Positions 30,634 to 52,333 of a stretch of DNA of 64,000 nt are shown here, piece after piece. The stretch is from Antedon mediterranea. Lineage: Eukaryota; Animalia; Echinodermata. Position numbers and translations under genes: made by a program. The notes under the pieces were generated by a model that was not told the origin of the DNA, searched no databases, and saw only the letters and a program-made list of their open reading frames with translations. Positions within the stretch are counted from its first letter, which is position 1; every line of letters begins with the position of its first letter. The stretch covers positions 29,939,499 through 30,003,498 of the forward strand of contig NC_092676.1 in NCBI RefSeq assembly GCF_964355755.1. The letters are read 5' to 3'.

Positions 30634-30911
30634 GTAAATACTGCTTATAATACATTTATACTTCATAGAAATTGATTTGATAACTTTATTTGCCCTTCTA
30701 GTTGTAGTATCAAGACACTTATTACTAGCTCTTCTGATAGAGGGCTGTATAACATATACTGTACCTCAGACATTACTGTACACTGAATTTTATTTAATAT
30801 TTCTTAATAAATATTAATACATTTGATTTTCATTATCCAGATGGCATTATGTGCTCTCACACATTGTGCCAGTGCTAGACCACATACAGCAATTGTTATT
30901 CTCTCATTTAG

Positions 30912-31049: not shown

Positions 31050-31070
31050 GTAAATATTAGTTCTATGTTT

Positions 31071-31290: not shown

Positions 31291-31385
31291 ATATATAAAC
31301 AAAACAAAAACAATTTCAAAATGAACCAGCATGGAGCACCATCTAATGATCTATGCAAAGCATCAACATTTTGACTCTCTTTTAG

Positions 31386-31562
31386 GTAGACAAAGCTGAA
31401 GCAGTACTACTGCAAATTAGACACATTCTTGACACAAACACCAGTGTAATGGAACTCAAACAACTTAGTGAGCAATTCTTCAGTTTAATTCATCTTGATA
31501 AAGATCGCATCGGTACAATTCAAGACAAAGCAACACTTGCCAAAGTACATGACATTTGTCAA
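31386..31562 (+). CDS. PARP4: PARP4 exon 8 (VDKAEAVLLQIRHILDTNTSVMELKQLSEQFFSLIHLDKDRIGTIQDKATLAKVHDICQ)
   Basis: Aligns with human ILLLVKAALKNGETAEQLQKMMTEFYRLIPHKGTMPKEVNLGLLAKKADLCQ. Confidence 0.75.
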
Positions 31563-32407
31563 GTGAGTTTTTATTTTCTTGAAATCAAATAAAAATGAGA
31601 ATTGGTTTTATGTCATTTTACCTACTAATTTGCTAACTTTGTTTATAAATTGTTAACGTTGAGAGCAGCTAACTCTATTCCTTCTTTTTACTTTTTTTTT
31701 ATGAAGTTTCTTTTTTTTTTAAGCCAAAAAAGTATTGTTACATACCACTACATACCACCACTACTACTACTACCACTACAGTTTCAACAATTTTGGCTTA
31801 GAAAAAAAGAAACTTCATCAAAAGTAATCATACAAAGCCAAATGAAATTATTTGAACATTTCTATTCCTTCTCCTGTCAAGATTGTGCTTGATATAACAT
31901 GCTGAATAAATATTATTATATAATAATAGCATCCTGAATTTATAAAGCGCTTCATGTTGTGAAACTGTACATACAAACCGAGAGAGAAAAAAGAAGCGAA
32001 ACCCAAACCGAAATATAATGAGTTGGTTGACATACAGGTCACAAGCTACCAAGTAGTATTTGCAGGCTTTTTCCTGGGTTGACACAAAGCTCTAAAAACT
32101 TAAAAACATTCAGTTAGATGAACACTTAAAACTGACATTATTCAAGCTAATGACTATCACAGCTTGAGAAAATCTTAAAATTCTATCATTTGTTGTCATT
32201 TTAATATAATTATAGTTAATTAAAGAAGGTGGTTGACATAGTAACAAGCTACCTACTACCTATAGTATTTGTCTTGGGTTGACACTAAGCTCTAAAAAAC
32301 GTAAAAACGTTTCGTTATGTTAACATTTAGAGCCTACTTTGCTCCAGCCAATTACTTTTCCAGCTTGAGAAAATCTTAAATTTTGTTGTGATTTATTATA
32401 ATTATAG

Positions 32408-32568
32408 CTAATCAAAGACATAGAATGTTTAAGTGAAGCGACTAATTTCTCACCACGTAACACGATGCAGGCAAAGGTCCGTGCTCTACACTGTCACGTT
32501 GAACACTTGCCAAGCTCGTCACCAGAATACAAGACCATTTCTGATTTAGTAAGATCCAGCACTGAAAG
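32408..32568 (+). CDS. PARP4: PARP4 exon 9 (LIKDIECLSEATNFSPRNTMQAKVRALHCHVEHLPSSSPEYKTISDLVRSSTE)
   Basis: Aligns with human LIRDMVNVCETNLSKPNPPSLAKYRALRCKIEHVEQNTEEFLRVRKEV. Confidence 0.75.
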
Positions 32569-32734
32569 GTAAACTATTTGATTTCACATTCTATTGTAAG
32601 TAATACTTACTTAGTCCAGTTCCTCTCTCTCGATACCAGTATCCGTCTCTAGTACAAGTATATAATACTTTACTTATTTAGTCAGGGACATACACAAATA
32701 TGTATGACCAGATTCCTTCATAATTTCCTATCTG

Positions 32735-32925
32735 TGGGCCATTGTGACAGTCGGTTCATCTCTCTGCATACCAGTACCAGCTCTAGTAGAGCTAGTATTA
32801 CTCTAGTACATCAATGTAAGTAAGTAACCTACAGTCGGTTCATCTCTCTGCATACCAGTACCAGCTCTAGTAGAGCTAGTATTACTCTAGTACATCAATG
32901 TAAGTAAGTATTATAGCTCATAAAT
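32735..32925. repeat. Tandem duplication of about 75 bp x 2 (cagtcggttcatctctctgcataccagtaccagctctagtagagctagtattactctagtacatcaatgtaagtaag) in PARP4 intron 9
   Basis: Direct repeat. Confidence 0.8.
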
Positions 32926-32951
32926 AAATGTAACTCCTTTGATTTTTTTAG

Positions 32952-33092
32952 TGGTAGAAACAAGTTTGACATAAAGAATATCTTTGCTGTTAATCGAGCA
33001 ATTGAAGCGACAAACTTTACACATCATCTGGGAAATAAAAGGCTTTTGTTTCATGCATCCCGGCCAGCAAACTTTGTTGGCATACTCACAAG
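32952..33092 (+). CDS. PARP4: PARP4 exon 10 (SGRNKFDIKNIFAVNRAIEATNFTHHLGNKRLLFHASRPANFVGILT; PARP catalytic domain)
   Basis: Aligns with human SPVDVLQIFRVGRVNETTEFLSKLGNVRPLLHGSPVQNIVGILC. Confidence 0.8.
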
Positions 33093-33384
33093 GTCAGTTT
33101 CCATTTGCATTATTATTCACTGATCATATCTGGGGCCTCTGTGAGACACCAGTCTTTGACTGAAAAGTAACCAAGTTTAAATAAATACTAAATGAATAAA
33201 TGATGTAAAGGCATGTCTCCTTATGCAAGTTGTAACTCTTGTTGCCTCATCCTTCGAATGGGATATGAAGGTATACTAAGATAGGACATAGTATGCATTG
33301 CACTTTCACTGCTGTAGGTCTTTACCAAATGTCATCATTTAAAGATGAATAATAATAATAATATATTTTTTGTGTTGTTTGCAG

Positions 33385-33483
33385 AGGTCTTCTTCTACCT
33401 AAGATTGTAGTGGATGATTTTGGTGGACAGCTGACCGATCCTGGAAACCTAGGAAGTGGAATTTATTTTACAGACAGTGCCAG
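33385..33483 (+). CDS. PARP4: PARP4 exon 11 (RGLLLPKIVVDDFGGQLTDPGNLGSGIYFTDSA)
   Basis: Aligns with human RGLLLPKVVEDRGVQRTDVGNLGSGIYFSDSL. Confidence 0.85.
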
Positions 33484-33594
33484 GTACTGTAGGAAATGTA
33501 TACAGATTGTTAAATTGTACTTTTTTGATTGACTTTTTGTTCTTCATATTGGCAATTCAGACTTACAGATATTAATTACATTTATTTCTTCTAG

Positions 33595-33778
33595 TACAAG
33601 TGGAAAGTATTCATCTCGAAGTAAAGTTAAAGGATCTCGCTTCATGCTCGTAAATGAAGTTGCTCTTGGGAAGTGTCTGGATATGAAGTCTAAAAATTAC
33701 ACACTCTCAGCAGCTCCAGAGGGTTATGACAGTGTCCATGGTGTAAAGAAGACGCATGGAATGAGAACCCAATTTGTG
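33595..33778 (+). CDS. PARP4: PARP4 exon 12 (RTSGKYSSRSKVKGSRFMLVNEVALGKCLDMKSKNYTLSAAPEGYDSVHGVKKTHGMRTQFV)
   Basis: Aligns with human STSIKYSHPGETDGTRLLLICDVALGKCMDLHEKDFSLTEAPPGYDSVHGV. Confidence 0.85.
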
Positions 33779-33906
33779 GTAATAAAATCAAAATCATTGT
33801 TATGCTAATTGTCTGATTGTTGATTTTGTCTTTGTTACAAGAAGAATGAAATACAGATTTAAAAAAAATACAATTTAACTATTTTGTGAATTGTTGTTTT
33901 TTGCAG

Positions 33907-34063
33907 GATGATGAATTTGTTGTGTATAATAAGAATCAACAACGTATTCGCTATCTGGTTGAATTTAAACTTCCTAACGATGCAATCAAAGACATTATAC
34001 AAATGTCACTGCAAGAAATACGACCCAGTCAAGATTCAAGTCATTCACGCCCTGTAGATATTA
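33907..34063 (+). CDS. PARP4: PARP4 exon 13 (DDEFVVYNKNQQRIRYLVEFKLPNDAIKDIIQMSLQEIRPSQDSSHSRPVDI)
   Basis: Aligns with human DDEFVVYKTNQVKMKYIIKFSMPGDQIKDF; donor gtaagt 34064. Confidence 0.8.
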
Positions 34064-34513
34064 GTAAGTACCGTGTCTTGTCATGCAAGTCCTGTGTTAG
34101 TACGTATCTAAGTGTCTATTATATCTTTAAATAAAGCAGTAGTAGTCACTACTCTTTGGTCCTACAAATTTAAATGTGTTTATTCTGCTGTAACAGAAGT
34201 TATTATAATATTATTTTTTGACATATCAAGCAAAAAATTACCAGGAGTAATCAATAAGCATAGACCTGAACAGATTTCATCGCTCTTCCTCCAACATTGT
34301 TGCGATACATTACAAAAATACTTGATTACAAATCTGTATACAATACAAAATTTAATAATAATAATAATAATATGCTACAGAAAAAAAAGTGTGTGCCTAA
34401 AAAAGGTCTCGGACAAATGAGACAGAAAACAAATGTAAAAAAATTATTACTTCAATAACAAGTTTAGAGCTTATTTATAAAAGTATTTTCATTGATATAT
34501 TAAAACATTTCAG

Positions 34514-34644
34514 ATCTCAATACCATTGAGTCACTCAAGAATCCTATGGATAATCTACAAGCAGGTTTACAGTCAAAGAGTAATAATTCAGTTCCACTCA
34601 CAGCAGTCCACATCAGAGCACAGCTAATAGATCTTACAGCACAG
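34514..34644 (+). CDS. PARP4: PARP4 exon 14 (NLNTIESLKNPMDNLQAGLQSKSNNSVPLTAVHIRAQLIDLTAQ)
   Basis: Aligns with human ..GNLVPLEDVHIKGRIIDTVAQ. Confidence 0.7.
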
Positions 34645-34941
34645 GTCAGAGTTCAACTCATTTATGCATCATTTTGACTTTTTGCAGATCAATCACTTTG
34701 TTTGGCCCTTTCCTTTTTTTGTGTGTATCTTTTAGCATAAAATAACCATTGAATTACTTCAAGTTGTGGTTGTAACAAAACATCTCAACTTTACTGTCCT
34801 TTTAGAAACCCAGAGTGTATTGCAAACCTTATGCAAACCATTAAATAGAATTGGTAAACCAGAGGTTCCACTAATAAGTTTGATATATTATAATATAAAA
34901 CAAACTCCTATACTAGTATAATGTAAACTTTGTTTGAATAG

Positions 34942-35160
34942 GTTGTAGTACTACAGGCCTATAGGAATGACAGCAACGTTCCGATTGAAGCCAAGTATGT
35001 ATTCCCTCTGGATGACATGGCAGCAGTGTGTGGCTTTGAGGCTTTCATTGACGGTAAACACATCATTGGTGAAGTTAAAGATAAAGAGGTTGCTCATCAC
35101 GAATACAAAGAGGCCATCAGAAAAGGACATGGGGCTTACTTAATGGACGAGGAAACACCT
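34942..35160 (+). CDS. PARP4: PARP4 exon 15 (VVVLQAYRNDSNVPIEAKYVFPLDDMAAVCGFEAFIDGKHIIGEVKDKEVAHHEYKEAIRKGHGAYLMDEETP; VIT domain)
   Basis: Aligns with human VIVFQTYTNKSHVPIEAKYIFPLDDKAAVCGFEAFINGKHIVGEIKEKEEAQQEYLEAVTQGHGAYLMSQDAP. Confidence 0.85.
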
Positions 35161-35446
35161 GTAAGTAACACAAGATGTTTATGCATGACATTAAGCAGAT
35201 TTGAATATCAATTGCAAAGATTGTGACTAACTATGTCACTCAAACTTCAAATTCACTTTTAAATTTAAACTTAATTACCGAAATTCAAATAAGAATAGTT
35301 ATTGTATCATTCCAATATTGTAGAAGCTAGATTTTGTACAAACAATTAATTTATTTTAATTTTTTTTCTATCGAAGAGATACTCATTGCATAAATTTTAA
35401 ATTCACTATAATTCTTTTTTTTACATTTTTTTTTATACATTATAAG

Positions 35447-35652
35447 GATGTTTTCACAGTGAGTGTAGGTAACTTACCTCCAAATTCAGATGTGTTGATA
35501 AAAATCACCTATGTAGCTGAGCTTGGTGTTGAATCTGGCAAAGTTATGTTTAGTCTGCCTGGCAGTGTAGCTCCGTGGAAAAAAGACAGCGCCCTCTCGC
35601 AGACTACTCAGGAACAGATGGAAACATTAAAAGTTTCAGGCCAGCCAACAGG
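35447..35652 (+). CDS. PARP4: PARP4 exon 16 (DVFTVSVGNLPPNSDVLIKITYVAELGVESGKVMFSLPGSVAPWKKDSALSQTTQEQMETLKVSGQPT)
   Basis: Aligns with human DVFTVSVGNLPPKAKVLIKITYITELSILGTVGVFFMPATVAPWQQDKALNE. Confidence 0.85.
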
Positions 35653-35848
35653 GTAAATACTAAGCATGTTTATTGAGGATGTATAAGCCAATAGTATCAG
35701 AAGGAATCTTAAGATTCTATTTGACTTCATATACTCGGTTTTTACCTATACATTGGGACTATAGAAATTTAAAACAGTTCATTGTATAAAAATATTATCT
35801 ATAGGAACAAAATATAGTGAATACTTGTTTACTGTTTTTTTATTTCAG

Positions 35849-35930
35849 AAGAACTTCAATCCAGATTTCCATATTGATGCCATATGACATTTGTTTGATT
35901 GAGTCTCCAACTCATCCAATCAGATTTAAG
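35849..35930 (+). CDS. PARP4: PARP4 exon 17 (GRTSIQISILMPYDICLIESPTHPIRFK)
   Basis: Aligns with human SFSLTMSIEMPYVIEFIFSDTHELKQK. Confidence 0.75.
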
Positions 35931-36029
35931 GTAACACATTTACAAACACGACGTCTAACCAGTGTTCTGTTAATGCTATCCAATAATGGTGATGTTGAGA
36001 ATTTTACACAAATATGATCTTTATTTTAG

Positions 36030-36170
36030 AAATCATCAACAAATGCAACGGTTGAATTAAGAAAGAATACACGATTGGAAGGGAGTGGATTTCAGCTGTT
36101 GATTCAACTTGCTGAAATACATGTACCAAGAATGTGGATTGAGAGACATCCAGATAAGACTAACTCACAG
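36030..36170 (+). CDS. PARP4: PARP4 exon 18 (KSSTNATVELRKNTRLEGSGFQLLIQLAEIHVPRMWIERHPDKTNSQ)
   Basis: Aligns with human RTDCKAVISTMEGSSLDSSGFSLHIGLSAAYLPRMWVEKHPEKESEA. Confidence 0.8.
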
Positions 36171-36194
36171 GTATGGAGTGAATCAAAAGACTGA

Positions 36195-36335
36195 AAACAA
36201 AAGACTTATGTGTATGTGTGACTTCTAGAGTAATGCTGGTGGTATATTGGACACTAATACTGATGTTAAGTGTGTATGTGTGACTTCTAGAGTAATGCTG
36301 GTGGTATATTGGACACCAATACTGATGTTAAGGGT
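36195..36335. repeat. Tandem duplication of about 62 bp x 2 in PARP4 intron 18
   Basis: gtgtgtatgtgtgacttctagagtaatgctggtggtatattggacac.aatactgatgttaag repeated. Confidence 0.8.
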
Positions 36336-36439
36336 TCTTCTTTCATGGTTCTAGTAGTAAAAATGTTCTCAGATAAAAGACTATAATCCACAGATCCAGT
36401 GATTATTTGCTCTTATCCTAGAGTTTATCCTTGTGATGC

Positions 36440-36905
36440 ACTCCGGTGTATTCACACTGATGATAGTATACTTAAGCTGCTGAAGTCACCATTCACACTG
36501 ATGCTAGTATACTTAAGCTGCTGAAGTCACCATTCACACTGATGCTAGTATACTTAAGCTGCTGAAGTCACCATTCACACTGATGCTAGTATACTTAAGC
36601 TGCTGAAGTCACCATTCACACTGATGCTAGTATACTTAAGCTGCTGAAGTCACCATTCACACTGATGCTAGTATACTTAAGCTGCTGAAGTCACCATTCA
36701 CACTGATGCTAGTATACTTAAGCTGCTGAAGTCACCATTCACACTGATGCTAGTATACTTAAGCTGCTGAAGTCACCATTCACACTGATGATAGTATACT
36801 TAAGCTGCTGAAGTCACCATTCACACTGATGGTAGTATACTTAAGCTGCTGAAGTCACCATTCACACTGATGATAGTATACTTAAGCTGCTGAAGTCACC
36901 ATTCA
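36440..36905. repeat. Tandem repeat, 41-bp unit x about 11 (cattcacactgatgctagtatacttaagctgctgaagtcac) in PARP4 intron 18
   Basis: Direct repeats. Confidence 0.9.
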
Positions 36906-37190
36906 CACTTAGGCTGAACAAAAATACCCTTAAAATAAAAAAATCTATTTAGATGAATATAATTTTAAGGGAAAAATTTGAATATTTATTGAGTTAGTGA
37001 AATTTATTATATAATTTAAAGAAAATATCTCACTTAAGTGTGATTGGTGAATATGCGGGCACTGACCCTTCAATCAATGTTTTTGATAGGTTCAATTTAA
37101 TTTAATTTTGGATTATTCGGTCATTGTTTAATACAGAACTATTATGAACATTTGTTCTTTCAATGTTACCATTATTATTTCATTTTCTAG

Positions 37191-37377
37191 GCATGTATGC
37201 TAACGTTTTATCCTGATTTTGAAAGTAAAGAAGATGCATCGCCAGAAATTCTCTTCTTTCTTGATATGTCAAACTCAATGGATGTAAAGAACCAGATGCA
37301 AGCTCAAACAATTGTAATGCTGATCCTTAAACATCTTCCTAAACAAGCAACTTTCAACATTATTACGTTTGGAACAA
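37191..37377 (+). CDS. PARP4: PARP4 exon 19 (ACMLTFYPDFESKEDASPEILFFLDMSNSMDVKNQMQAQTIVMLILKHLPKQATFNIITFGT; start of the vWA domain with DxSxS MIDAS motif)
   Basis: Aligns with human ACMLVFQPDLDVDLPDLASESEVIICLDCSSSMEGVTFLQAKQIALHALSLVGEKQKVNIIQFGT. Confidence 0.85.
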
Positions 37378-37665
37378 GTAAGTTTTTACTGAAGATAACA
37401 GTTAAAATAATTTAATGGTTTAATGGTTTTAAATTTATATAGCGCAAAATACAAATAGTCTCTTTGCGTGCGCTGTTAGCACAAGTTAAAAAATGAAAAA
37501 GTTGATAAAAGTAAGCCAGGAAAAAGCCTAATAAATAGTATATTTAACAGTGGGTTTGATCTGATTAACTGACTGACAAATTAAAATGAAATAAGAGAAA
37601 AAGGTGGAAAGAGAAAAAAGTAAAGAATGGGTAACAGGATTTAAAAGTTTTTAAAATAGCGTTTA

Positions 37666-37790
37666 AAGCTCTGTCTACTCTATCAAACTATATGTTTCAA
37701 AAAAATGTGATGTGGCTATATATGGACATGATGATGTCATATTACCACCATAAGTAAGCATATCGCTACCATATTTGGGCATTTTATATC
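37666..37790. mobile_element. MITE family copy in PARP4 intron 19 (left end and core; the right end is degenerate)
   Basis: aagctctgtctactctatcaaac...gtgatgtggctatatatggacatgatgatgtcat. Confidence 0.6.
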
Positions 37791-37918
37791 CAGTTTATGA
37801 ATGAAACAGATATTCATACCTGTGTGCAAGTACACATTCCATCACATGTGAGGAAGAATGATGTCATCTTTGGCCGCCAGTTGATGTTAATTTTCAACAT
37901 TTATGTTCTTTTATCAAG

Positions 37919-38180
37919 GTTTTAATGAGCTGTTTCCTGTTTGCCAACCTGCCACTACAGCCAACATTAAGTCTGCTAGGTCATTTGTTGCATGTGCTAA
38001 AGCCAATATGGGTAATACAGATCTGTGGCGCCCTCTAAACAGCTATTTCTTGCTGAGTGACGAAACTTGTGTTCGAAATATCTTTCTTATTTCTGATGGA
38101 CACATTAATAATGAGGAATCTACTCTTGCAGCGATTCAACTCAATGCAAATTGTAATAGAGTTTTTACGTTTGGGATTAG
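37919..38180 (+). CDS. PARP4: PARP4 exon 20 (SFNELFPVCQPATTANIKSARSFVACAKANMGNTDLWRPLNSYFLLSDETCVRNIFLISDGHINNEESTLAAIQLNANCNRVFTFGI)
   Basis: Aligns with human GYKELFSYPKHITSNTMAAEFIMSATPTMGNTDFWKTLRYLSLLYPARGSRNILLVSDGHLQDESLTLQLVKRSRPHTRLFACGI. Confidence 0.85.
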
Positions 38181-38378
38181 GTAGGTAAAACACTTTTATG
38201 TTATTTTTATTTCAGTTGCTGTCAACCCTCCCAATAAATGCTGGAAACTTATATACTTATATACTTCTGGTTTTCCAGAAAAGTTGGTATTCCAAAAATG
38301 AAAAAAAAAATATATATCTTTGGACCTCAAAAAAAGGGAATTTATTTTGTTAATATTTGATGTAAATTTTATTTTTAG

Positions 38379-38478
38379 CGCAACAGCCAACAAACATTTG
38401 TTAAAATCCATTGCTCGTGTGGGAACAGGAGCTTTTGAGTTTTTTGATACAAGTTTAAAGTCAAGATGGGCAAAAAAG
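38379..38478 (+). CDS. PARP4: PARP4 exon 21 (SATANKHLLKSIARVGTGAFEFFDTSLKSRWAKK)
   Basis: Aligns with human GSTANRHVLRILSQCGAGVFEYFNAKSKHSWRKQ. Confidence 0.8.
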
Positions 38479-38815
38479 GTTAGATAAACATTTTATATGT
38501 TGTTTATTATATCATTATGTTATGTAATTGTCATTTAACTCCAATTAATTATCTTTAAAGGTTAGTTAAACATTTTATATGTTATTTATTATATCATTAT
38601 GTTATGTAATTGTCATTTAACTCCAATTAATTATCTTTAAAGGTTAGATAAACATTTGATATGTTGTTTATTATATCATTATGTTATGTAATTGTCATTT
38701 AACTCCAATTAATTATCTTTAAAGGTTAGATAAACATTTTATATGTTGTTTATTATATCATTATGTTATGTAATTGTCATTTAACTCCAATTAATTATCT
38801 TTAAATGCCAAAATT
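38479..38815. repeat. Tandem repeat, 82-bp unit x 4, in PARP4 intron 21
   Basis: gttagataaacattttatatgttgtttattatatcattatgttatgtaattgtcatttaactccaattaattatctttaaag repeated. Every unit recreates the donor context aaag|gttag. Confidence 0.85.
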
Positions 38816-38818
38816 TAG

Positions 38819-38989
38819 ATTAAAAGTCAGTTGTTGAAAGCAATGCAACCAGTGTTAAGCAACGTGAACGTTGAGTGGGAACAGTTAGAAGACAGCGCCC
38901 CCAAACCAATCCAAGCACCGAGTCAGATAACATCGTTATTCAGTGGATCACGTCAAGTTGTGTATGGATACGTTCCATGCTGTCGACAG
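38819..38989 (+). CDS. PARP4: PARP4 exon 22 (IKSQLLKAMQPVLSNVNVEWEQLEDSAPKPIQAPSQITSLFSGSRQVVYGYVPCCRQ)
   Basis: Aligns with human IEDQMTRLCSPSCHSVSVKWQQLNPDVPEALQAPAQVPSLFLNDRLLVYGFIPHCTQ. Confidence 0.8.
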
Positions 38990-39373
38990 GTAAATGCCTT
39001 CAGTTTGGTCGACTTTGAATAAAAAAGTGATACTAGAGATTCCCAAGTTCATTACATCATACATTCACTGGCATGTCAACATAAATGTCCACTTAATCTA
39101 AACATTCATATATCTGTCGACGAGAACAGCCGACTACGACCCATGTTGAAGTGGTCTTCGTTTACGTTCACTCAAATCTAAAAACTCCTATTAACAAGGA
39201 AAAGTGAAATTCGCTCTTCCCTTATTGATTGTTACTCATAAACTTATTTTATTTTTATTTTATTATTTTAAGGATTGTTTTCTTAATACACTTAAGTACA
39301 TACTCAAAATTTATAATCTCCACATTTTTGTATGTATTTTTTGTTATTTACTGTTATTGCCATTGTATTTAAG

Positions 39374-39454
39374 GCAACTTTAAAAGCTGAAATTAATGGT
39401 GAGGAGATTTCAACAAAGGTATCCACAAATGAACTTAACATCACAAGGGGTAAG
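39374..39454 (+). CDS. PARP4: PARP4 exon 23 (ATLKAEINGEEISTKVSTNELNITRGK)
   Basis: Aligns with human ATLCALIQEKEFRTMVSTTELQKTTGTM. Confidence 0.75.
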
Positions 39455-39830
39455 GTAAGTTTATGAATGGAATTTCTTTATTATCACAATTGATTCTTGT
39501 TCATTTGAGCGACGTTGGTGAGATTGGCTATGCGTTGCTTTTGTGTAATTTGTTGATATAAAGTTCGCGGTATAACACGAATATTTGATTTCGCCATGCA
39601 AACCTTCAAACAATGTAATTATTTCATATCAAGAATCGGGGGAAAATGTTACTTCTTTTTCCTCCTTCTTTTCATTTATTGCAATTTATTAATTATGTGA
39701 TTCTTTATTGTTTATTGGTTAGACTGAAAAATTGACCAAAACATTTTTTTTTAAATAGGAGAATAAATAAATAAAATTAAATCATTCTAAATTGACTTAT
39801 GATGGATTTAATATTTTTATGCTTGCGTAG

Positions 39831-40013
39831 ATATTGCACCAACTAACAGCCAGAGCAATTATCCGTGACTGGGAGGACGGAACGTTGGATGTTGACCCGG
39901 TAGAGCATGACATTAAGAAAGAAGCTCAGAAATCTTACATCATTGACCTGAGTAAAGAGTATTCTATAGTGACACAGTTTACAAGTTTCATCGCCGTAGA
40001 AGAACGAAATAAG
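39831..40013 (+). CDS. PARP4: PARP4 exon 24 (ILHQLTARAIIRDWEDGTLDVDPVEHDIKKEAQKSYIIDLSKEYSIVTQFTSFIAVEERNK)
   Basis: Aligns with human IHKLAARALIRDYEDGILHENETSHEMKKQTLKSLIIKLSKENSLITQFTSFVAVEKRDE. Confidence 0.85.
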
Positions 40014-40417
40014 GTAAAATTAACAATAATCATAAAATTTTAATGATTTTATATAGTGATAATAAAATGATATGTCTGTCGTTTGTGGGGCATCCCATGG
40101 TGGTGAAATTAGGTGGTATCTCTCTCTCATCTAATTGGTGCCGATTTATTAGCACCTTTCGGGGTCCCCCCGATCAAGACGCAGCAGTCTATGAGGTAAA
40201 TCTTTAGTATTCAACATTTCCATATACCTGTTTGTAGAGACTTGTAGAGAAATTGCATCGCCACCACAGCATTTCTTGTGTTGTCAATGGTTTGTTTGAT
40301 TTTTGTAATGATTTTACTTTAAAATATTTCCAGTGAAGCAACATGTTGATTTGATTCATTTGGTAAAAGCATAAATGTACTTCTATGTTATATTCATTGT
40401 TTGTATTTATTATTTAG

Positions 40418-40600
40418 ACTGATTTTGTGGACGCTATTTTTAAGCCAAGTATCAACGACCTTGTCGCAAAAGAGGATGTAGATACTATTCCTTATGTTTC
40501 ATGGGAAGACACGCTTAAAATTGAAGATGTTGAATCAGATTTGCAAATACCTCCAGAAAAAACAACTGAAGATAATTTATGTTACTCTGCTATGGAAATG
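40418..40600 (+). CDS. PARP4: PARP4 exon 25 (TDFVDAIFKPSINDLVAKEDVDTIPYVSWEDTLKIEDVESDLQIPPEKTTEDNLCYSAMEM)
   Basis: Aligns with human ..PDIPKVSELIAKEDVDFLPYMSWQGEP. Confidence 0.8.
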
Positions 40601-40741: not shown

Positions 40742-40764
40742 AAAATTTACAGTTTGGATCCAAT
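40742..40764 (+). CDS. PARP4: PARP4 candidate micro-exon (23 nt; KIYSLDP..)
   Basis: Strong acceptor ttttatttaag and donor gtgagt; needed to carry the frame from exon 25 (phase 0) into the phase-1 exon series. Tentative. Confidence 0.3.
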
Positions 40765-41424: not shown

Positions 41425-41435
41425 GGAATTTGCCT
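41425..41435 (+). CDS. PARP4: PARP4 candidate micro-exon (11 nt; ggaatttgcct)
   Basis: 20-nt poly-T tract + cag acceptor and a consensus gtaagt donor only 11 nt later; phase-compatible. Tentative. Confidence 0.3.
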
Positions 41436-42013: not shown

Positions 42014-42076
42014 ATATGGGTATTCCTGAATCAGTAAAGATTAAGAGTAGTAGATACAGACAATTAAGACAAGCAG
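42014..42076 (+). CDS. PARP4: PARP4 C-terminal exon (YMGIPESVKIKSSRYRQLRQA)
   Basis: Acceptor tatag 42009-42013, donor gtttgt 42077; phase 1 in, phase 1 out. Confidence 0.45.
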
Positions 42077-42258
42077 GTTTGTATGAAACATCATTATTAT
42101 TAATATTTCAATTTGTTATTAATAAAACAAATCATTTTTAAACTCATAAAAATACTGTGTTTACTCACTCTCAGGTTGTTATACAAATTATATATTACAT
42201 ATAATCCCTCAAGAAAAATATAATTATGTCTCTTTTTTTGGTAAAACCTGTTTTATAG

Positions 42259-42366
42259 CTTGTTATGATTTCGGTTTAGAACATCAAAAGATAGCTCCAG
42301 ATTTAAGTGGAGTAGGTTGCATGGGAATAGATATTCGACCACGACGAGGAGGATTAAATATTAAAG
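42259..42366 (+). CDS. PARP4: PARP4 C-terminal exon (ACYDFGLEHQKIAPDLSGVGCMGIDIRPRRGGLNIK)
   Basis: Acceptor ttttatag, donor gtatgt 42367; phase 1-1. Confidence 0.5.
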
Positions 42367-42633
42367 GTATGTTTTCACATAGAAAATTAGACTTAAAATA
42401 TGCCCATCTATGCTGTGTGTTTTTCACTGTTTTAGTTAAAATTTAAGTTATGATTAAGTGTTAAAGTTAAGATCCTTCTTGCTTTCTTTTGTTTTTATTT
42501 TGTTTATGTATTTAAGAATTTATTTATTTTATATATACTAGGAGTTGCTGGCTTATTTAAGCCTAGTATGATGTATGTATCTTATTTAGCTGGTCAAAAT
42601 CAATCCTAGTAATTTCTTTTTCTTTTTTATTAG

Positions 42634-42669
42634 CAAAGAAGAGTGAAAAGCCAGTGAGATTTTCACCAG
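42634..42669 (+). CDS. PARP4: PARP4 C-terminal module exon (AKKSEKPVRFSP)
   Basis: Phase 1-1 36-nt exon between ttattag and gtaatc; paralogous to 43502-43537. Confidence 0.45.
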
Positions 42670-43019
42670 GTAATCTCTTTGAGACACATGGTGATTGTCT
42701 GAGTATCTTATTTTATATTTGAATATACAAGCAGTTTTTGGTTCTCTAAGAAACTTTTATTAAAACTTTTTATTGAAAACTTCATATGCTTTCACTTTCG
42801 TTAAAGGTGTATCCCCAAAACATGAATAAAATCTGACTTTTAATAGGCCATTTTGCAGTTTTAATAAAGTTATTCACTTCTATAGAAAATGAAAACCAAA
42901 CAAAATTATTATTTCACTTATAAAAAGACAAAATAAACAGTTTATTTTAACCAAAAACTCTGACATATAATTTGAGTATTTGTTGCTTTAAATTACATTT
43001 TTTTCAGGTAAATCATTTT

Positions 43020-43165
43020 TTTCATATGCGATTCAAAGTGAATAACTATTATGCGACATTAAAATATGCCATTTAATGTCGACATTGAAATATGCTATTT
43101 AATGTTGACATTAAAATATGCCATTTAATGTCGCATAATAGTTATTTACTTTGAATTGCAAAAAA
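43020..43165. mobile_element. MITE-like hairpin in a PARP4 intron: inverted ends (cgattcaaagtgaataactattatgcgacatt / aatgtcgcataatagttatttactttgaattgc) enclosing 4 tandem 26-bp units (taaaatatgccatttaatgtcgaca)
   Basis: The terminal segments are exact reverse complements. Confidence 0.6.
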
Positions 43166-43212
43166 AAATATGCATGTTCAACAAAAAATGTTTTAAATAA
43201 TTATTTTTTCAG

Positions 43213-43281
43213 AGGGACAATATATGCTTCTAAAACAGTATGCCTTAGGCGATTGCAGTGTCCCTGCACCAACAGCTAAAG
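43213..43281 (+). CDS. PARP4: PARP4 C-terminal module exon (EGQYMLLKQYALGDCSVPAPTAK)
   Basis: Phase 1-1, acceptor tttttcag, donor gtttga. Confidence 0.45.
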
Positions 43282-43501
43282 GTTTGATTTTCTTTCTATT
43301 TAGGAGCTAATTACTTAATTAGCCCTCAGTAGCATTTCCTGTCACCAACTTTGGTGCTTAGTGCACATAATTATTATTCTTTTGTATTCACTTGATCTTG
43401 AAAATGGTTCTATGATGGTACCGAAATGTCCATCTCTCTTTTTTTCATTAAATTTATATTCAATCCTACTAATTTCTAATCCTACTTTTTGTTTTTATTA
43501 G

Positions 43502-43537
43502 CATTAAAGAGTGAAAAGATAGCGAGACGTAGAAAAG
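43502..43537 (+). CDS. PARP4: PARP4 C-terminal module exon (ALKSEKIARRRK)
   Basis: Phase 1-1; paralog of 42634-42669 with similar flanking intron sequence. Confidence 0.45.
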
Positions 43538-44017
43538 GTAATTAATCTCTTAAAAGACCCATTTATGTTTAAGATTTAGTCTTTCAGTTTTATTGTTCTT
43601 ATGAATGTTACATGAGTGATTGATTCTGTCTGTATTTTGATAATCAGAAGTTGGGTTCAAACAATAAAAAGTGTGTCAACGTCCTTACTGTATGAAACTG
43701 TATAACGAGCAAAATGGTATTGCACCACAAAAGATCAATGTTTACTTTATTGTTTATCTAATGGCGATACCTTTTTTCCACTAATAGCATCTTATTTAAT
43801 GTTTGAATATACAAAAAAGTTTTTGGTTCTTTAAGAAACTTGTTTGATTAAACTTTCTTTCTTTCACTTTTAATTAGCTCTACTTCTAGATTGTTTTGAT
43901 TTGCTGTTACTATGTCAGTGTATGATTAAAAATGATCCAGCATAGTACAGTGTCAATAGTATGTAATTAGAGTGGCAAACTTGTTATATTTATATACTGT
44001 TATCATATACATTTCAG

Positions 44018-44107
44018 CAGCCGCAGCCCCAGAATATATTGGCAGCTTTGTAGGAAGCTGCAATTTAGAAGCATTGGAAAGTTGTCCTCGTGTCCAAACA
44101 GGTTCAG
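44018..44107 (+). CDS. PARP4: PARP4 C-terminal module exon (AAAPEYIGSFVGSCNLEALESCPRVQTGS)
   Basis: Phase 1-1; paralog of 47484-47555 (intragenic segmental duplication). Confidence 0.45.
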
Positions 44108-44347
44108 GTAGTGTTCAAATTATTCATTGATTGCTTTAAATAAGTTTACAAGTTATCAAAAATGACATTAAAGGTAGAAAATCTGTAATACCAAGAAGAA
44201 TATTAATCTCAGTTTTTTTTTCTAATTAGCAATACCTTTTTTCCACTAATAGCATCTTATCTTATCTTAATATTTGAAAATACAAAAAGTTTTTGGTTCT
44301 TAAGAAACTTGTTTGATTAAACTTTCTTTCTTTCACTTTTGTTAAAG

Positions 44348-44395
44348 AATTAAATTGTTTTGATTTGGACAGTGTATCAGCACCAAGAGCTAAAG
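44348..44395 (+). CDS. PARP4: PARP4 C-terminal module exon (ELNCFDLDSVSAPRAK)
   Basis: Phase 1-1, ends ..aaag|gtatg. Confidence 0.45.
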
Positions 44396-44862
44396 GTATG
44401 TTTTTTGATAAAACAAAATGCAAAACATGTATGTATCTATTGTACTGTTTCAGATTAGAATTTGTTTGTGTGCCAATGTGCTTATACTTAAGGTCCATTT
44501 ACACTAGGACGATCTGCATTTTTCAAACATAATCAAAAGAAATGTAAATAGTTTTCATTCTAGAACTATAAGATAACCATCCATGCTTTAATGAAAATGA
44601 TACTTTCACAGCAACATTTTTATTTATCGTGACGCCTTGATTGGATTTTTAACAATAATATTTTTATCAAAGACAGCATAAATGATTATTCTGTAGTTCT
44701 TCTAGAACGAAAACCTTTCTAATTTCTTTTTTTTTATCTAAGAAAAATGCATGCTTATTTATCGTCAATCGTTATCATCCTAATGTAAATGGGCCTTTAT
44801 GTATTTGGATATCCAATTATCTTTATTATGATTAATATTATAATGATTTTTTTTTTTATCAG

Positions 44863-44910
44863 CATTTTCTAACAGTAAAAGAAAAATTTATACTAAGTCA
44901 TTTTCTAAAG
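44863..44910 (+). CDS. PARP4: PARP4 C-terminal module exon (AFSNSKRKIYTKSFSK)
   Basis: Phase 1-1, ends ..aaag|gtatg. Confidence 0.4.
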
Positions 44911-45435
44911 GTATGATGTTAACTTATTATTCATGTATGTTGGTATAGTATCTTCATAAGCATGATTAATTATTTAAAAAATCAACTGGACTGGCTATTA
45001 AATCAGCTCTCATGCTATTGGCATCATTGAACATTCCAGAAAAGAATTTGTTGATTAAACCATTTTATTTGTTTATCACATGCAATTTTTATTCGTACTC
45101 TAAATGAAGACATGATTATTGTAGTATTCAGTATTATGGTGATTACTGTAAAGACAGTACAGTAATGGTGATATACATAATCACTGTACAGTACAGTCCT
45201 TTCATTATCATTGTCTTTATAATTTATCTAAAATAAATTGGACGTTATCGTACCTAAAGTTATGGATTAAACCATTTGTTTATTCCATGATATTTTCGTT
45301 TATATTTGAATGTCGATACTTCAAATGTAGATAATTCAAATGAAGAAATTGTGGTATACCTCATTGAATAAAGTAATTTTTTAAGAGACTTGTTTAATGA
45401 CTTTTGATATGCTTTCAATTTGTGTGTGTGTTTAG

Positions 45436-45522
45436 AAGCCAGTTGTTTTGATATTATTGAGGCTCAATCACCACCACCACTGCCGCCAAAGCTAAAACTT
45501 GCCAGTATGAACAACAGATCAG
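45436..45522 (+). CDS. PARP4: PARP4 C-terminal module exon (EASCFDIIEAQSPPPLPPKLKLASMNNRS)
   Basis: Phase 1-1, acceptor tttag, donor gtaatt. Confidence 0.45.
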
Positions 45523-45589
45523 GTAATTTTAAAGTCACACGACAGCATCTTTTATTTTTCTATAAGACATTCTATTAGTGATACAGTCA

Positions 45590-45745
45590 CTCAGGGAGAG
45601 ACCTCTTGGGTTGAGCAGGAGAGACTCATGTTGTGTAGTGTTGACTCAATCCAATAAAGTAGTATTAGTGATACAGTCACTCAGGGAGAGACCTCTTGGG
45701 TTGAGCAGGAGAGATTCCTGTTGTGTAGTGTTGACTCAATCCAAT
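45590..45745. repeat. Tandem duplication of about 74 bp x 2 in a PARP4 intron
   Basis: tattagtgatacagtcactcagggagagacctcttgggttgagcaggagaga.tc.tgttgtgtagtgttgactcaatccaataaagtag. Confidence 0.8.
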
Positions 45746-45771
45746 AAAGTAGTATTTGTAGCTAGCTACTG

Positions 45772-45880
45772 TAAAGTTCTGTTTACACTATCAAACTAGT
45801 TTGACAAAAAAAGTGTAATGTGCCCAAATATGGTAGTGATATGCTTAAATATGGTAGTGATATATCATCATCATGTGCCA
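45772..45880. mobile_element. MITE family copy, partial, in a PARP4 intron
   Basis: aaagttctgtttacactatcaaactagtttgacaaaaaaagtgtaatgtgcccaaatatggtagtgatatg.. Confidence 0.6.
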
Positions 45881-46062
45881 TAACTAATCCGTTTTTGTTG
45901 TCCATCATTCGAAACAGTAATGGTGATATACAATATAATGGTGTTCTTTAATTATCATTGTTTTTATTATTTACTTAAAATAAATTTGAAGTTACCATAC
46001 CTAAAGTTATGCATTAAAGCATTTGTTTATGCCATGATATTTTCATTTATATTTGAATGTAG

Positions 46063-46134
46063 ATACTTCATGTGATGACATGGGTAGTTTATGTGGAATG
46101 GATTTCAAAAGCATGGTAAACTTCTCGGATTTAG
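46063..46134 (+). CDS. PARP4: PARP4 C-terminal module exon (DTSCDDMGSLCGMDFKSMVNFSDL)
   Basis: Phase 1-1; the upstream intron duplicates 45100-45330. Confidence 0.4.
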
Positions 46135-46558
46135 GTAAGTTATTTCACCATATTAGATAACATAATTTAAAAATAAGAAAACTGGAAAAAGATGGTAAAC
46201 CAAGAAGAAAATTTGTTTTAACCAGTAATTCTGATTCTTTGGAATTGTTACAATAGAACAGTATTTATATACTTAATGTTGTACACGTGTCTAGCTTTCT
46301 CAAAGTGAACTGAATGTTTACCTAATGTTGTACACGTGTCTAGCTTTCTCAAAGTGAACTGAATGTTTGCAAAACGTTTTAAGTACCATTTTAGTACTTT
46401 TAATCTTTTGAATCAACAAAAAAGAAACCTTCTCTTCTTTTCATTATACTACACAATATATACTTTTACACGTAATATACTGAGAATTAAATAATTCATT
46501 TATAACAGTGAGGACAAGGAATTATAATTACTCTAGCAATGTTTCCTTTTTTTTTCAG

Positions 46559-46603
46559 TGGAAAGAGGCGGTGTATTATCTGGTGAAAAACAGTTGAAAA
46601 GGG
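46559..46603 (+). CDS. PARP4: PARP4 C-terminal module exon (VERGGVLSGEKQLKR)
   Basis: Phase 1-1, donor gtaggt. Confidence 0.4.
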
Positions 46604-46826
46604 GTAGGTGCTGGATTTTAGCAGCATATGTATATTTATTTGCATATATATTTATGTAATGCTACAATTGTTGCTAGGTTATTATTAAGAATATCAAAAT
46701 AATGTAAAGCTTGTAACACCATCAATGATGTCATTTATTTGTATTGTTCATTTGGAGTTCTCGCTTTTGAATGTTGTTACTGAAATGTAGAATATAATTA
46801 TTCTGTTTTTTTTATAATATTTTTAG

Positions 46827-46850
46827 CAACGATATTCAAGAAAAAAAAAG
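46827..46850 (+). CDS. PARP4: PARP4 C-terminal module exon (ATIFKKKK)
   Basis: Phase 1-1, donor gtaagt. Confidence 0.35.
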
Positions 46851-47297
46851 GTAAGTTTCTTGTGATTGGAAGTCAAAAATATTCAAATTAGAAACAAGTT
46901 AATAATCAGGTAGAATTAAAAGCTCTGGTATCCTTAGGCAAGATACAATTTTGGGTGTAGGTGTAGAAATGGGTACCAAGTTAGATCAAGACACAACTTT
47001 GCGCTGATTACTAGCTGCATTATGGGAGTATGTTTCCATACATGTTTGATAAAAAAAAGTGATCAGGTTAATAATGTGAAGTGCTTAGAAGCATTGTGCA
47101 AAGCGCTATATAAGAACAATTATTATTATAGATGATTTGAAATAGTGGGTGGGCTTAAGGGCTGAACTGCTGAACTTAACCTACTGCTTTATCTTTACAT
47201 TGTCATTTTCAAAACTTTGGAGCCAGTTGCCTGTTTTTTTGGTTGTTTTTTTTTAAATTGTTAAACAATTAATAAATTATACTGCTTTATTTATCAG

Positions 47298-47333
47298 GAT
47301 TTTCACTTGGTTTTCCTAAACGCAAAACAAATG
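47298..47333 (+). CDS. PARP4: PARP4 C-terminal module exon (GFSLGFPKRKTN)
   Basis: Phase 1-1, donor gtaaat. Confidence 0.4.
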
Positions 47334-47483
47334 GTAAATATGTTTTCATTTTGTTTAGCTTATTTTGTTGTTCAGAATTACTGTCAATGTATGATTAAAA
47401 ATGATCCAGCATAGTACAGTGACAATAGTATGTATTTAAAGTTGCAAACTTGTTATAATTGATGATATTATATACAGTTTCAG

Positions 47484-47555
47484 CAGCCACAGCACATTTC
47501 TCACTAGAAAGCTGCAATTCAGAGGCATTTGAAAATCGTTGTCATTTCCAAACAG
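47484..47555 (+). CDS. PARP4: PARP4 C-terminal module exon (AATAHFSLESCNSEAFENRCHFQT)
   Basis: Phase 1-1; paralog of 44018-44107. Confidence 0.45.
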
Positions 47556-47918
47556 GTAGTGTTCAAATTATTCATTGTCTACTTTAAATAAGTTATCGAA
47601 AATGACATTAAAAGGTAGAAAATCTTTAATAATACCAGGAAGAGTATTAATGTCACTCTCTCCTGGTATTACTTGGTAACTAAGTTTGTCAAAATCCGGG
47701 AGAATGATCTTAATGAATTCTGCACAATTATACTACCATAAACTAAATTATTATTTTGGATTATGTTGATAGTTTTTGCCTTGAGTAAATTACTGTTATG
47801 TTTATCTATTTTTCCACTTTTATAGATACAGTAACAATATTTATTTAAATCAATGAAGTCAATACCAACTCTCCAGATATGAAATTTCATCAATATTGTC
47901 AATATATTTTTCCCCTAG

Positions 47919-47969
47919 ATATGAAGAGTGATGATGAACTTGATTTTGATTTACTGTCTTACTATCAGA
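47919..47969 (+). CDS. PARP4: PARP4 C-terminal exon (DMKSDDELDFDLLSYYQ)
   Basis: Phase 1 in; donor gtaagt at 47970, which is the first unit of the 41-bp tandem array. Confidence 0.45.
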
Positions 47970-50502: not shown

Positions 50503-51419
50503 GTATTTTTGAATTTCTTTTATTTAGAATCATTTTAATTATGGATAATAATAATAATGGGGCTAAGATGTAAGCAAGAGCTTTAGACGCAAAGTCGCTT
50601 TAAATGAATAAATATAAAATAAATAAATAAATGAATAAATTTAAAATAAATAAATAATTGAATAAATTCAAAATAAATAAATAAATAAAATCAATAAAAT
50701 GTACCATTGTAACGATAATAATAATACTAACAATAGAAATATGCAGTGTTATGTCTAGAATTCACTAGCCCCCTTCAACAAACCACACATAATACATAAG
50801 ATATACAATTTCATTCAACAGTTTTTTTAGTAACACTAATGCTTGGTTCCCACTAGAGACGCAACACAAGGACGTAACGCAACGAAATGAGTTAACGAAT
50901 CACAAGCGATTGGATATTTGAACTGTAGCCTGTCCTTGGTCAACACGCTTGCATTGTTTCTAGGTCCTTGCGTTGCGTCCAAAGCTTAAGTGTCAAGATT
51001 ACCGTGTCATCATCTTAAAATTTAAAAAAAAATTATTTTAAAATATAAACCAGTTCTATACAGATTATAATGTATCATTTTTGAATTAACGTTTTTACTT
51101 ATACATACTTATATGTAGATTTAGATATCAGAAGTTTCAATTTTGCTGGTTCTGAAGTGAATTTGTCTGCATATATATTAAAACTGTTGTGGTCTGAATT
51201 TGATTGGGAAAGTGTAAGTTGATAGTACTTGTAATCATTATAAAACACTGAATTATAATGTGAAGTAAACATTAGTGTGAGTTAATTAGTTGTTTAACTA
51301 TAAAGTACATTTTTTTTGTATAACAACAGTAGACAATATACATTTAACATGTCCAACTGCATTCATGAGGCACTCTTATAATAAGACACTTTGTTGGGTC
51401 AGAAATGTGTCCTCTTAAT

Positions 51420-51660
51420 GGGAGTTCTACTGATTACCTGTATGTATGTATCATTTAATTATCTTATAGAAAACATACATGAGTCACTCGAGGTATATGA
51501 AGTATAAGCTGGTTACATTTGTATGTGGCCAGTAATGTAACCATTTAATTACCTTATAGAAAACATACATGAGTCACTCAAGGTTGTACTGTATATAAAG
51601 TATAAGCTGGTTACATTTGTATGTGGCCAGTAATGTAACCATTTAATTATCTTATAGAAA
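51420..51660. repeat. Tandem duplication of about 120 bp x 2 in the last PARP4 intron
   Basis: ..atttaattatcttatagaaaacatacatgagtcactc.aggt...agtataagctggttacatttgtatgtggccagtaatgtaacc.. repeated. Confidence 0.8.
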
Positions 51661-52112
51661 AGATTTTGGAAATTGTCTGCAACATTTGCTGTAATATTTG
51701 CCATCAAACGGAGATTTGTTGTTGCTTTGCTGGAACGTGCTGGTATCAAGGCACTAGGTAATCCATTTGACATTTTTGGGAATGACTCTTGTAGTTAAAG
51801 TAATCTTATTTACTTTAGCAGCCCCTGACCCATTTATCCCTGTAGGCCTATATTTTACATTATGTTGGTCAAATAAATTAATGAAATGAACATTAATGGA
51901 CCATAGTAGTAATGGTAAAACACAAAGAACAATACAAGACAATTTGGAGAATGAGTTTAAAATAATTTGCTGTGACAATAATTATTATGTAATATTATTA
52001 TTTATTTTTAAAAAGGCTTCTTAATTCTTAACAGCACTTGATTAAACAATCTCTGATTATTCTTGAATATTGAAAAGGTTATTTTTTTATTTTATAATTT
52101 TTTTTTTTGTAG

Positions 52113-52333
52113 ATTTAACACTGCAGAAGAAAGTTCACTTCATGCTAGCTATTGCCATTGCTCTTGAAAGATTCCAGTCTTCAAAGAATTTAAGAGAAAT
52201 AAAAAAACAACCAATAAAACAGCTGAATGCATGGTTAGATGAGAGTGAAAATGATAACTATGGACTTGCCTCACATCTAGAACTTGGCCAAGACTGGCGC
52301 GATGTGGCATCTAAGTTGTGTACAAATAAGTAA
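52113..52333 (+). CDS. PARP4: PARP4 terminal exon (DLTLQKKVHFMLAIAIALERFQSSKNLREIKKQPIKQLNAWLDESENDNYGLASHLELGQDWRDVASKLCTNK*)
   Basis: Aligns with the human PARP4 C-terminus ..WAFEAIKQASEWVRRTEGQYPSICPRLELGNDWDSATKQLLG; stop TAA 52331-52333. Confidence 0.7.

Follow-up and report, generated by a model that had tools for sequence, protein, structure and literature searches.

Within a window of 64,000 nucleotides (nt) from the crinoid Antedon mediterranea (contig NC_092676.1, positions 29,939,499 to 30,003,498), we consider it likely that positions 27830-52333 of the + strand form a single PARP4 gene. This gene would comprise ~48 coding exons and ~1857 amino acids (aa) and would have been split by the annotation pipeline at an exon of only 11 nt. 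Between its enzymatic body and a C-terminal vault-docking domain lies an array of 15 very short exons (E1 to E15, 42014-47969), which most likely codes a tether between the enzyme body and the vault anchor. To judge from its internal repeats, the array region is one that grew by overlapping local segmental copies, some of which then died, and not from a clean tandem unit. The locus provides one more case of an evolutionary mechanism that is already well known, together with a probable annotation error, and not a new kind of system. All positions given below refer to the window, whose DNA is AT-rich (GC ~30%).

Gene layout and the annotated split

The peptide joined from the candidate exons showed 99% identity to one database protein, XP_071957036.1 ("uncharacterized protein", Antedon mediterranea, 594 aa), and exact spliced mapping placed all 595 codons of this model on the + strand with zero mismatches. 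RefSeq names the gene upstream of it PARP4-like and gives isoforms of 1268, 1267 and 1046 aa. In the translation of 27830-40600, Pfam matched PARP (2.9e-37), VIT (4.9e-37), VWA_3 (6.5e-17), PARP_reg (5.6e-6) and BRCT_2 (5.6e-5); the ITIH-like central region, i.e., VIT and VWA, is thus present in the Antedon PARP4 body. Exon sizes and phases of this body agree nearly one for one with those of the starfish Asterias.

The body ends at exon 25 (40418-40600, phase 0-0). From its phase 0 exit, phase 1 is reached via two micro-exons of 23 and 11 nt (40742-40764 and 41425-41435), and the 27 upstream coding exons are of mixed phases, in contrast to the uniform 1-1 phases of the array. The RefSeq PARP4-like isoforms X1 and X2 (XP_071956344/5) read through the donor at 41436 to a TAA at 41453-41455, and the second RefSeq gene (XP_071957036) begins at an ATG at 42016, 2 nt into the exon starting at 42014. 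When the GTAAGT donor of the 11-nt exon is used, this exon leaves in phase 1, which is exactly the phase needed by the exon at 42014. Splicing 41435 to 42014 preserves the frame, with ..MEFA-Y-MGIPES.. across the junction. Exons of 11 nt are easily missed by short-read aligners, and this by itself would yield such a split. The two-gene split at 41425-41455 / 42014-42016 hence probably is an annotation artefact, and frame compatibility, domain logic and conserved introns make it most likely that both RefSeq models belong to one transcript. Rfam and tRNA scans of 40000-53000 gave no matches.

An earlier note on this DNA, made from the sequence alone, had assigned the short exons to the PARP4 C-terminal region. 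Their location agrees with this, as they lie after the BRCT-PARP-VIT-VWA gene and lead into the domain that docks PARP4 to the vault. In view of the two RefSeq genes, the note was too certain of a single transcript.

The C-terminal vault-docking domain

Profile search, predicted fold and shared introns identify the last 100 residues of XP_071957036.1 as the PARP4 vault-docking, or MVP-interaction (MINT/MVP-ID), domain. A profile built from 13 full-length PARP4s (vertebrates, starfish, bivalve, cnidarians and sponge), with the C-terminal 190 residues taken from each, matched aa 491-590 with E=1.8e-7 at Z=1e6; it also matched the relative from the crinoid Anneissia and missed every truncated PARP4 model. 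In the reverse direction, a profile of three crinoid-type C-termini had residues 1585-1699 of human PARP4 as its sole match in 177,635 PDB sequences (E=0.022). The AlphaFold2 (AF2) model of aa 456-594, with a predicted local distance difference test score (pLDDT) of 81.5, had 9bw6_B as its top match (probability 1.0, template modeling (TM) score 0.63; others E>5), a match that is partly circular, as the AF2 input alignment held PARP4 MVP-ID sequences. 9BW6 is the human vault-PARP4 structure and the matched chain is MINT, the domain which in human docks on MVP repeats 3-5 (PMC12280208).

The intron positions point in the same direction. Exon 51658-51757 (100 nt, phase 0 to 1, ending ..GIKAL) compares with the first MVP-ID exon of goby (103 nt, 0 to 1, ending ..GITSL) with an identical end and a start within one codon, and its starfish counterpart has the same phases and a similar size. 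Pfam gave no match for XP_071957036.1, the copy searched being one without PF26156 PARP4_MVP-ID.

Compared with vertebrate PARP4, the Antedon MVP-ID is without ~35 middle residues and is preceded by an extra, crinoid-only segment of ~130 residues. This segment (48717-50502, aa 326-455 of XP_071957036.1) shows 37% identity between the two crinoids (positions 9881-10111 of the Anneissia locus L001) and is without a match elsewhere. On visual inspection it looks like the beginning of MVP-ID, and a second copy of this domain was considered; with an hhalign probability of 0.3%, this was not supported.

The mini-exon array

The splice map of XP_071957036.1 resolves 42014-47969 into 15 consecutive exons of 24-108 nt (Table 1). 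Each has a length divisible by three and phase 1 at both ends. They were first derived by hand from the sequence and then matched to XP_071957036.1, and the sole difference was the acceptor of E14 (47484 by hand, 47478 in RefSeq). The phases, the size range, the return to phase 0 at 48418-48503 and a chain free of stops and phase breaks had all been read correctly from the sequence before. The count of about 17 exons in the earlier note was too high, as 43878-43919 and 47359-47388 are decayed paralogues outside the RefSeq model. Exon ends described there as Lys-Gly did not hold up either: the codon split after ..AAA G| usually is Ala, Glu or Asp, also Val, and Gly once only.

Several properties set these exons apart from their surroundings. 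The phase-1 frame is open in each of the 15 exons and is the sole open frame in 10. If stops were as frequent as in the introns (stop-triplet frequency 0.072), 297 codons would stay open by chance with a probability of ~2.5e-10, and the probability that all 15 lengths are multiples of three, calculated by hand as (1/3)^15, is ~7e-8. The GC content is 37.8% in the array exons and 27.3% in the introns. A pyrimidine tract with an AG acceptor and a GT donor is found at every exon. Candidates with good AG..GT sites, a length divisible by three and an open array frame number 24 here, versus 1-8 per 6 kb elsewhere in the window, on both strands.

Table 1. Positions of the features of the Antedon PARP4 locus within the window
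Feature	Position	Strand	Description	Basis
PARP4 body	27830..40600	+	BRCT, PARP regulatory and catalytic, VIT, VWA; 25 coding exons, mixed phases	exact splice map of RefSeq PARP4-like X1, Pfam matches
23-nt micro-exon	40742..40764	+	phase 0 to 2, codes KIYSLDP(M)	used by RefSeq PARP4-like X1/X2
11-nt micro-exon	41425..41435	+	phase 2 to 1	T17-CAG acceptor before, consensus GTAAGT donor after
E1	42014..42076 (RefSeq coding sequence from 42016)	+	63 nt, phase 1-1, YMGIPESVKIKSSRYRQLRQA	splice map
E2	42259..42366	+	108 nt, phase 1-1, CYDFGLEHQKIAP..RPRRGG	splice map
E3	42634..42669	+	36 nt, phase 1-1, AKKSEKPVRFSP, paralogue of E5	splice map, self-comparison
E7 intron unit, copy 1	42702..42806	+	AG acceptor retained, exon body lost (stop 6 codons in)	self-comparison
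E4	43213..43281	+	69 nt, phase 1-1	splice map
E5	43502..43537	+	36 nt, phase 1-1, ALKSEKIARRRK, paralogue of E3	splice map, self-comparison
Decaying E7-type exon	43878..43919	+	ALLLDCFDLLLLCQ, open, length a multiple of three, outside RefSeq model	lies within intron unit copy 2, 43731-43903
E6	44018..44107	+	90 nt, phase 1-1, paralogue of E14, tandem donors 44101 and 44107	splice map, self-comparison
E7	44348..44395	+	48 nt, phase 1-1, ELNCFDLDSVSAPRAK, live member of three-copy unit	splice map, self-comparison
E8	44863..44910	+	48 nt, phase 1-1	splice map
Dead E10 copy	45316..45372	+	acceptor AG changed to CG, in-frame TAA 45369-45371	upstream intron 83% identical to that of E10
E9	45436..45522	+	87 nt, phase 1-1, EASCFDIIEAQSPPPLPPK..	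splice map
E10	46063..46134	+	72 nt, phase 1-1	splice map, self-comparison
E11	46559..46603	+	45 nt, phase 1-1	splice map
E12	46827..46850	+	24 nt, phase 1-1, ATIFKKKK	splice map
E13	47298..47333	+	36 nt, phase 1-1	splice map
E14	47478..47555	+	78 nt (72 nt from alternative acceptor 47484), phase 1-1, paralogue of E6	splice map, self-comparison
E15	47919..47969	+	51 nt, phase 1-1	splice map
Crinoid-only segment	48418..50502	+	three exons: 48418-48503 (phase 1 to 0), 48717-48810 (0 to 1), 50203-50502 (1 to 1)	XP_071957036.1 aa 296-455
MVP-interaction (MINT/MVP-ID) domain	51119..52333	+	exons 51119-51213, 51658-51757, 52113-52333 (with stop)	profile, fold, intron positions

Local duplications within the array

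A sensitive self-comparison of 40600-48500 against the entire 64-kb window found four local paralogy families, all in the same orientation and with similarity running into the flanking introns. E3 and E5 form the first (42600-42674 ~ 43460-43542). The second is the intron unit of E7 with three copies (42702-42806 ~ 43731-43903 ~ 44193-44367), where self-comparison gave the blocks 42702-42806 ~ 43786-43856 ~ 44258-44347 at 76-83%, and where only the third copy leads into a used exon, E7 itself. E6 and E14 share the longest block, 43887-44211 ~ 47356-47655, which is 76% identical over 332 nt and includes a 6-nt GTTCAG indel. Both of its copies are preceded by an E7-type exon remnant (47376-47388 for E14, within the open candidate 47359-47388, whose length is a multiple of three), and the copied block therefore held two exons. 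The fourth family is that of E10 (45159-45380 ~ 45914-46134), in which the upstream introns 45159-45323 and 45914-46070 are 83% identical. Three of these paralogies had been listed in the earlier note and turned out to be real and local, at 76-83% and including the GTTCAG indel; the fourth pair was added here, along with four decayed exon copies.

No further copy of any paralogous block was found in the 64-kb window, and the E6/E14 copies have no shared terminal inverted repeats, which were searched for as a hallmark of transposable elements. Growth by overlapping local segmental copies would therefore best describe the region. Nucleotide paralogy covers 6 of the 15 exons (E3/E5, E6/E14, E7 and E10); for these, the proposal that the array arose by exon and intron duplication stood, in the form of overlapping segmental copies with decay instead of a clean tandem unit. 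For the other exons, only the alternation of basic and acidic, Cys-containing modules hints at older events.

In the duplicated pairs, exons diverged 2.5-3 times faster than the adjoining introns, with the frame kept. Between E6 and E14, exon identity is 74%, versus 90% in ~100 nt of intron on each side (p=0.0015), and indels are of 12 and 6 nt in the exon and of 4, 1, 8, 1, 3 and 1 nt in the introns. Between E3 and E5, the exon is 67% identical and the flank 91%, the flank being a T-rich acceptor region delimited by where similarity persists. Both pairs fit a frame-preserving rapid divergence, in a sample too small for claiming positive selection. E6 and E14 also carry splice sites 6 nt apart, donors at 44101/44107 and acceptors at 47478/47484, respectively, whose alternative use could make the product longer or shorter by two residues (Gly-Ser or Val-Ser).

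We thus propose that repeated local segmental duplications would copy blocks of one or two exons with their introns. Each new copy would be in frame at once because every unit is a multiple of three in phase 1-1. Some copies would then decay via acceptor loss or stop gain, and survivors would diverge fast with the frame kept. The uniform 1-1 phase explains the tolerated gain and loss of units. At a small scale the region is still duplicating, and intronic tandem duplications within the array are found at 45573-45756 (90-nt unit, two copies, 97%), 46270-46368 (49-nt unit, two copies, 98%) and 43054-43133 (26-nt unit, ~3 copies).

The linker and its counterparts in other animals

The 15 mini-exons code ~297 residues of a rapidly evolving linker rich in Ser, Lys and Ala, in which basic modules (KSEK, KRK, KKKK) alternate with acidic modules containing Cys and aromatic residues (CFD, SCNxEA). 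With 11 Cys in 295 aa, the linker is unusually Cys-rich. Vertebrate PARP4 has the order BRCT, catalytic, VIT, VWA, a long non-conserved linker and the C-terminal helical MVP-ID (human residues 1562/1570-1724), an order common to the Antedon gene. The human linker has been described as intrinsically disordered and quick to evolve, and as positively selected in primates around residues 1504-1521 (PMC10450202); the Antedon linker likewise is unalignable even between two crinoids. From its position and lack of conservation, it may be disordered and act as a flexible tether. The symmetric phases make exon skipping within the array possible, as they would let any subset of exons be left out without a frameshift; a single RefSeq product covers the array.

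A comparison with orthologues, as had been suggested, located the array at the linker position, which is coded in one exon of 989 nt in starfish Asterias and of 1383 nt in goby, versus 15 mini-exons and 2 micro-exons in Antedon. Because starfish and fish code the linker in one large exon, the mini-exon array is a derived, lineage-specific encoding of a segment that is variable everywhere, and one that would evolve by exon birth and death. Outside crinoids no homologue of the Antedon linker was detectable, and an exhaustive phmmer search found only two short crinoid-type relatives. One other crinoid, Anneissia japonica, carries a PARP4-like gene, an intermediate 237-aa model and an MVP-ID-bearing model as three fragments on contig VUNX01044782.1, with conserved order and a common strand. 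The Anneissia models are truncated: a coding exon extends upstream of the ATG of one, and another has a junk-like C-terminal tail.

Duplication within the linker is found elsewhere as well. The linker of the sponge Ephydatia muelleri PARP4 has a large exon and its own duplicated exon pair with KSESEEEEDENMGFSLFDDVITSEK.. occurring twice (locus L006, 14159-14431 and 14601-15068), and repeated peptide blocks are present in the PARP4 linkers of Mytilus, Rhopilema, Saccostrea and a cnidarian-like sequence. Several lineages thus show an expansion of this linker by duplication, although the units differ and have no sequence similarity to the Antedon modules. The motif C-[FY]-[DEG] occurs in Mytilus (three times), coelacanth, tuna, mackerel and goby and is absent from most of 70 orthologues; as a shared PARP4-linker motif it is a weak lead. 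Antedon is without the 14-3-3-like helical segment common to many invertebrate PARP4 linkers. A stretch like the actin N-terminus (Pfam Actin positions 4-61), well conserved in 11 invertebrate PARP4 linkers (sponge, cnidarians, bivalves, hemichordate and brittle star), is absent from Antedon, starfish and vertebrates. E2 was tried as a remnant of it and rejected, as a hidden Markov model of the 11 stretches had no match in XP_071957036.1.

Arrays of short symmetric exons that code repetitive flexible segments are familiar from the PEVK exons of titin. Alike are the many small exons of one phase with lengths in multiples of three, the growth by tandem duplication of exon and intron and a modular design for inclusion or skipping. 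The Antedon array is far smaller (15 exons), its repeats have diverged much further, and basic modules take turns with acidic/Cys ones where titin has one recurring repeat type. Tandem exon duplication and phase 1-1 exon shuffling reportedly are general mechanisms, as described by Patthy and by Letunic, Copley and Bork. The Antedon locus resembles them in its paralogous neighbouring exons and intron flanks, its symmetric 1-1 units and the birth and death of copies. Classical 1-1 shuffling carries folded extracellular modules between genes, whereas the Antedon copies are short non-domain segments within one intracellular gene.

Alternative explanations

Besides the partial circularity of the fold match, several observations speak against a single PARP4 gene with a flexible linker built by exon duplication. 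RefSeq/Gnomon has two genes, and none of the three listed PARP4-like isoforms joins the parts; a collection of 5.8 billion sequences held no protein spanning the 41435/42014 junction. The residues S1614, K1618 and R1689, by which human PARP4 contacts MVP (PMC12280208), have A, T and H as their aligned counterparts in Antedon and are thus not conserved. Nine of the 15 mini-exons have no detectable paralogue. In Anneissia, blastn, a splice-filtered scan of open reading frames and a motif scan, which covered the available sequence, with ~2.5 kb between the Anneissia loci L003 and L001 outside it, recognized no orthologous mini-exons, and purifying selection on the exons is therefore not demonstrated. 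Finally, in a simple charge-hydropathy estimate, the mean hydropathy of 0.447 and net charge of 0.044 make the linker a borderline case, marginally to the folded side of the Uversky line.

Two genes, as annotated by RefSeq, would mean either a fission of crinoid PARP4 or an internal promoter combined with intronic polyadenylation. An enzyme of 1267-1268 aa without vault-docking domain and a separate 594-aa protein of linker and MVP-ID would then be made independently. The RefSeq models themselves read this way; there is an ATG 2 nt into exon 42014, an ATTAAA lies ~100 nt 3' of the X1/X2 stop, and the Anneissia annotation likewise is in pieces. However, those pieces are visibly truncated models, and exon 42014 is immediately preceded by the pyrimidine tract and AG of a normal internal-exon acceptor. 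The 11-nt exon bears a perfect GTAAGT donor that sets the phase required by exon 42014, and its tendency to escape short-read aligners is enough to create the split. Moreover, every other full-length PARP4 is a single polypeptide that bears MVP-ID. We hence judge two genes to be rather unlikely and prefer the single gene.

More speculatively, the linker in this crinoid lineage might be under constant renewal, with in-frame mini-exons that arise, diversify rapidly under positive selection and die, and/or the body and the vault-docking part might be expressed as separate proteins. We regard this as quite improbable. If it were true, the selection seen on the primate linker and the rapid divergence of the crinoid exons would together suggest that the tether anchoring PARP4 in the vault bears an interface for recognition or conflict that is ancient and conserved.

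It is very unlikely that the mini-exons are prediction artefacts or unused pseudo-exons and that the mRNA skips from the body to distal exons, e.g., from 40600 to 48717, which also is in frame. No independent transcript-derived protein lies over the array, the cluster of XP_071957036.1 having one member; the exons show no recognizable conservation in Anneissia, and the dead copies show that exon decay occurs here. Against this stand the 297 codons open in one frame, the 15 lengths divisible by three, an exon GC content 10 points above that of the introns, acceptor and donor signals on every exon, and indels that between paralogous exons come in multiples of three, unlike those of the introns.

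Equally remote is an origin of the repeated blocks from independent insertions of a transposable element with an exonized segment: a true dispersed family like miniature inverted-repeat transposable elements (MITEs) is present in the region (41786-41993, 45735-45882; >10 copies in the window) and the E6/E14 intron flanks are better conserved than the exon, but the paralogous blocks have neither further copies in the window nor shared terminal inverted repeats, all copies lie in the same orientation inside one gene, and the blocks overlap at their edges in the manner of nested segmental copies (B+A and A+C units).

As a consequence for annotation, the uncharacterized protein that follows PARP4-like in Antedon, and apparently also in Anneissia, bears the PARP4 vault-docking domain; without this correction, crinoid PARP4 would wrongly seem to lack vault targeting. 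The split was probably caused by the 11-nt micro-exon, a kind of feature on which annotation pipelines can fail in general. With live, diverging and dead copies next to each other, the locus offers a snapshot of linker growth and turnover by duplication of symmetric mini-exons. It adds a data point to two themes, the fast-evolving PARP4 linker and the intron-rich versus intron-poor coding of non-domain regions.

Repeats around the array

The intron after E15 is almost wholly a tandem array (47952-48404) with a unit of ~35-40 nt in ~12 copies. It starts inside E15 and copies its last 18 nt and the GTAAGT donor, which results in ~12 competing donors, each then followed by an in-frame TAA. Each unit ends with ..TTTAG and thus formally looks like a mini-exon of 18 nt in phase 1-1 (ILSYYQ). 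Further downstream, an 18-nt satellite, TGTACTGTATACTCAATT, with ~66 copies at 94% match (48897-50100) fills most of the intron 48810-50203.

The MITE-like dispersed element has terminal inverted repeats (..ctgtctacactatcaaac..) and occurs on both strands. Apart from the two sites within or next to the array it is found at, e.g., 29314-29435, 37663-37810, 50054-50139, 56530-56662, 56927-57209, 60045-60289 and 61873-62065, and one copy ends 20 nt 5' of the acceptor of exon 42014. Immediately before the start codon of PARP4 (27830), positions 23126-27262 (+) hold open reading frames of the long interspersed nuclear element (LINE) type, an ORF1-like frame of 285 aa followed by an endonuclease/reverse-transcriptase frame of 877 aa.

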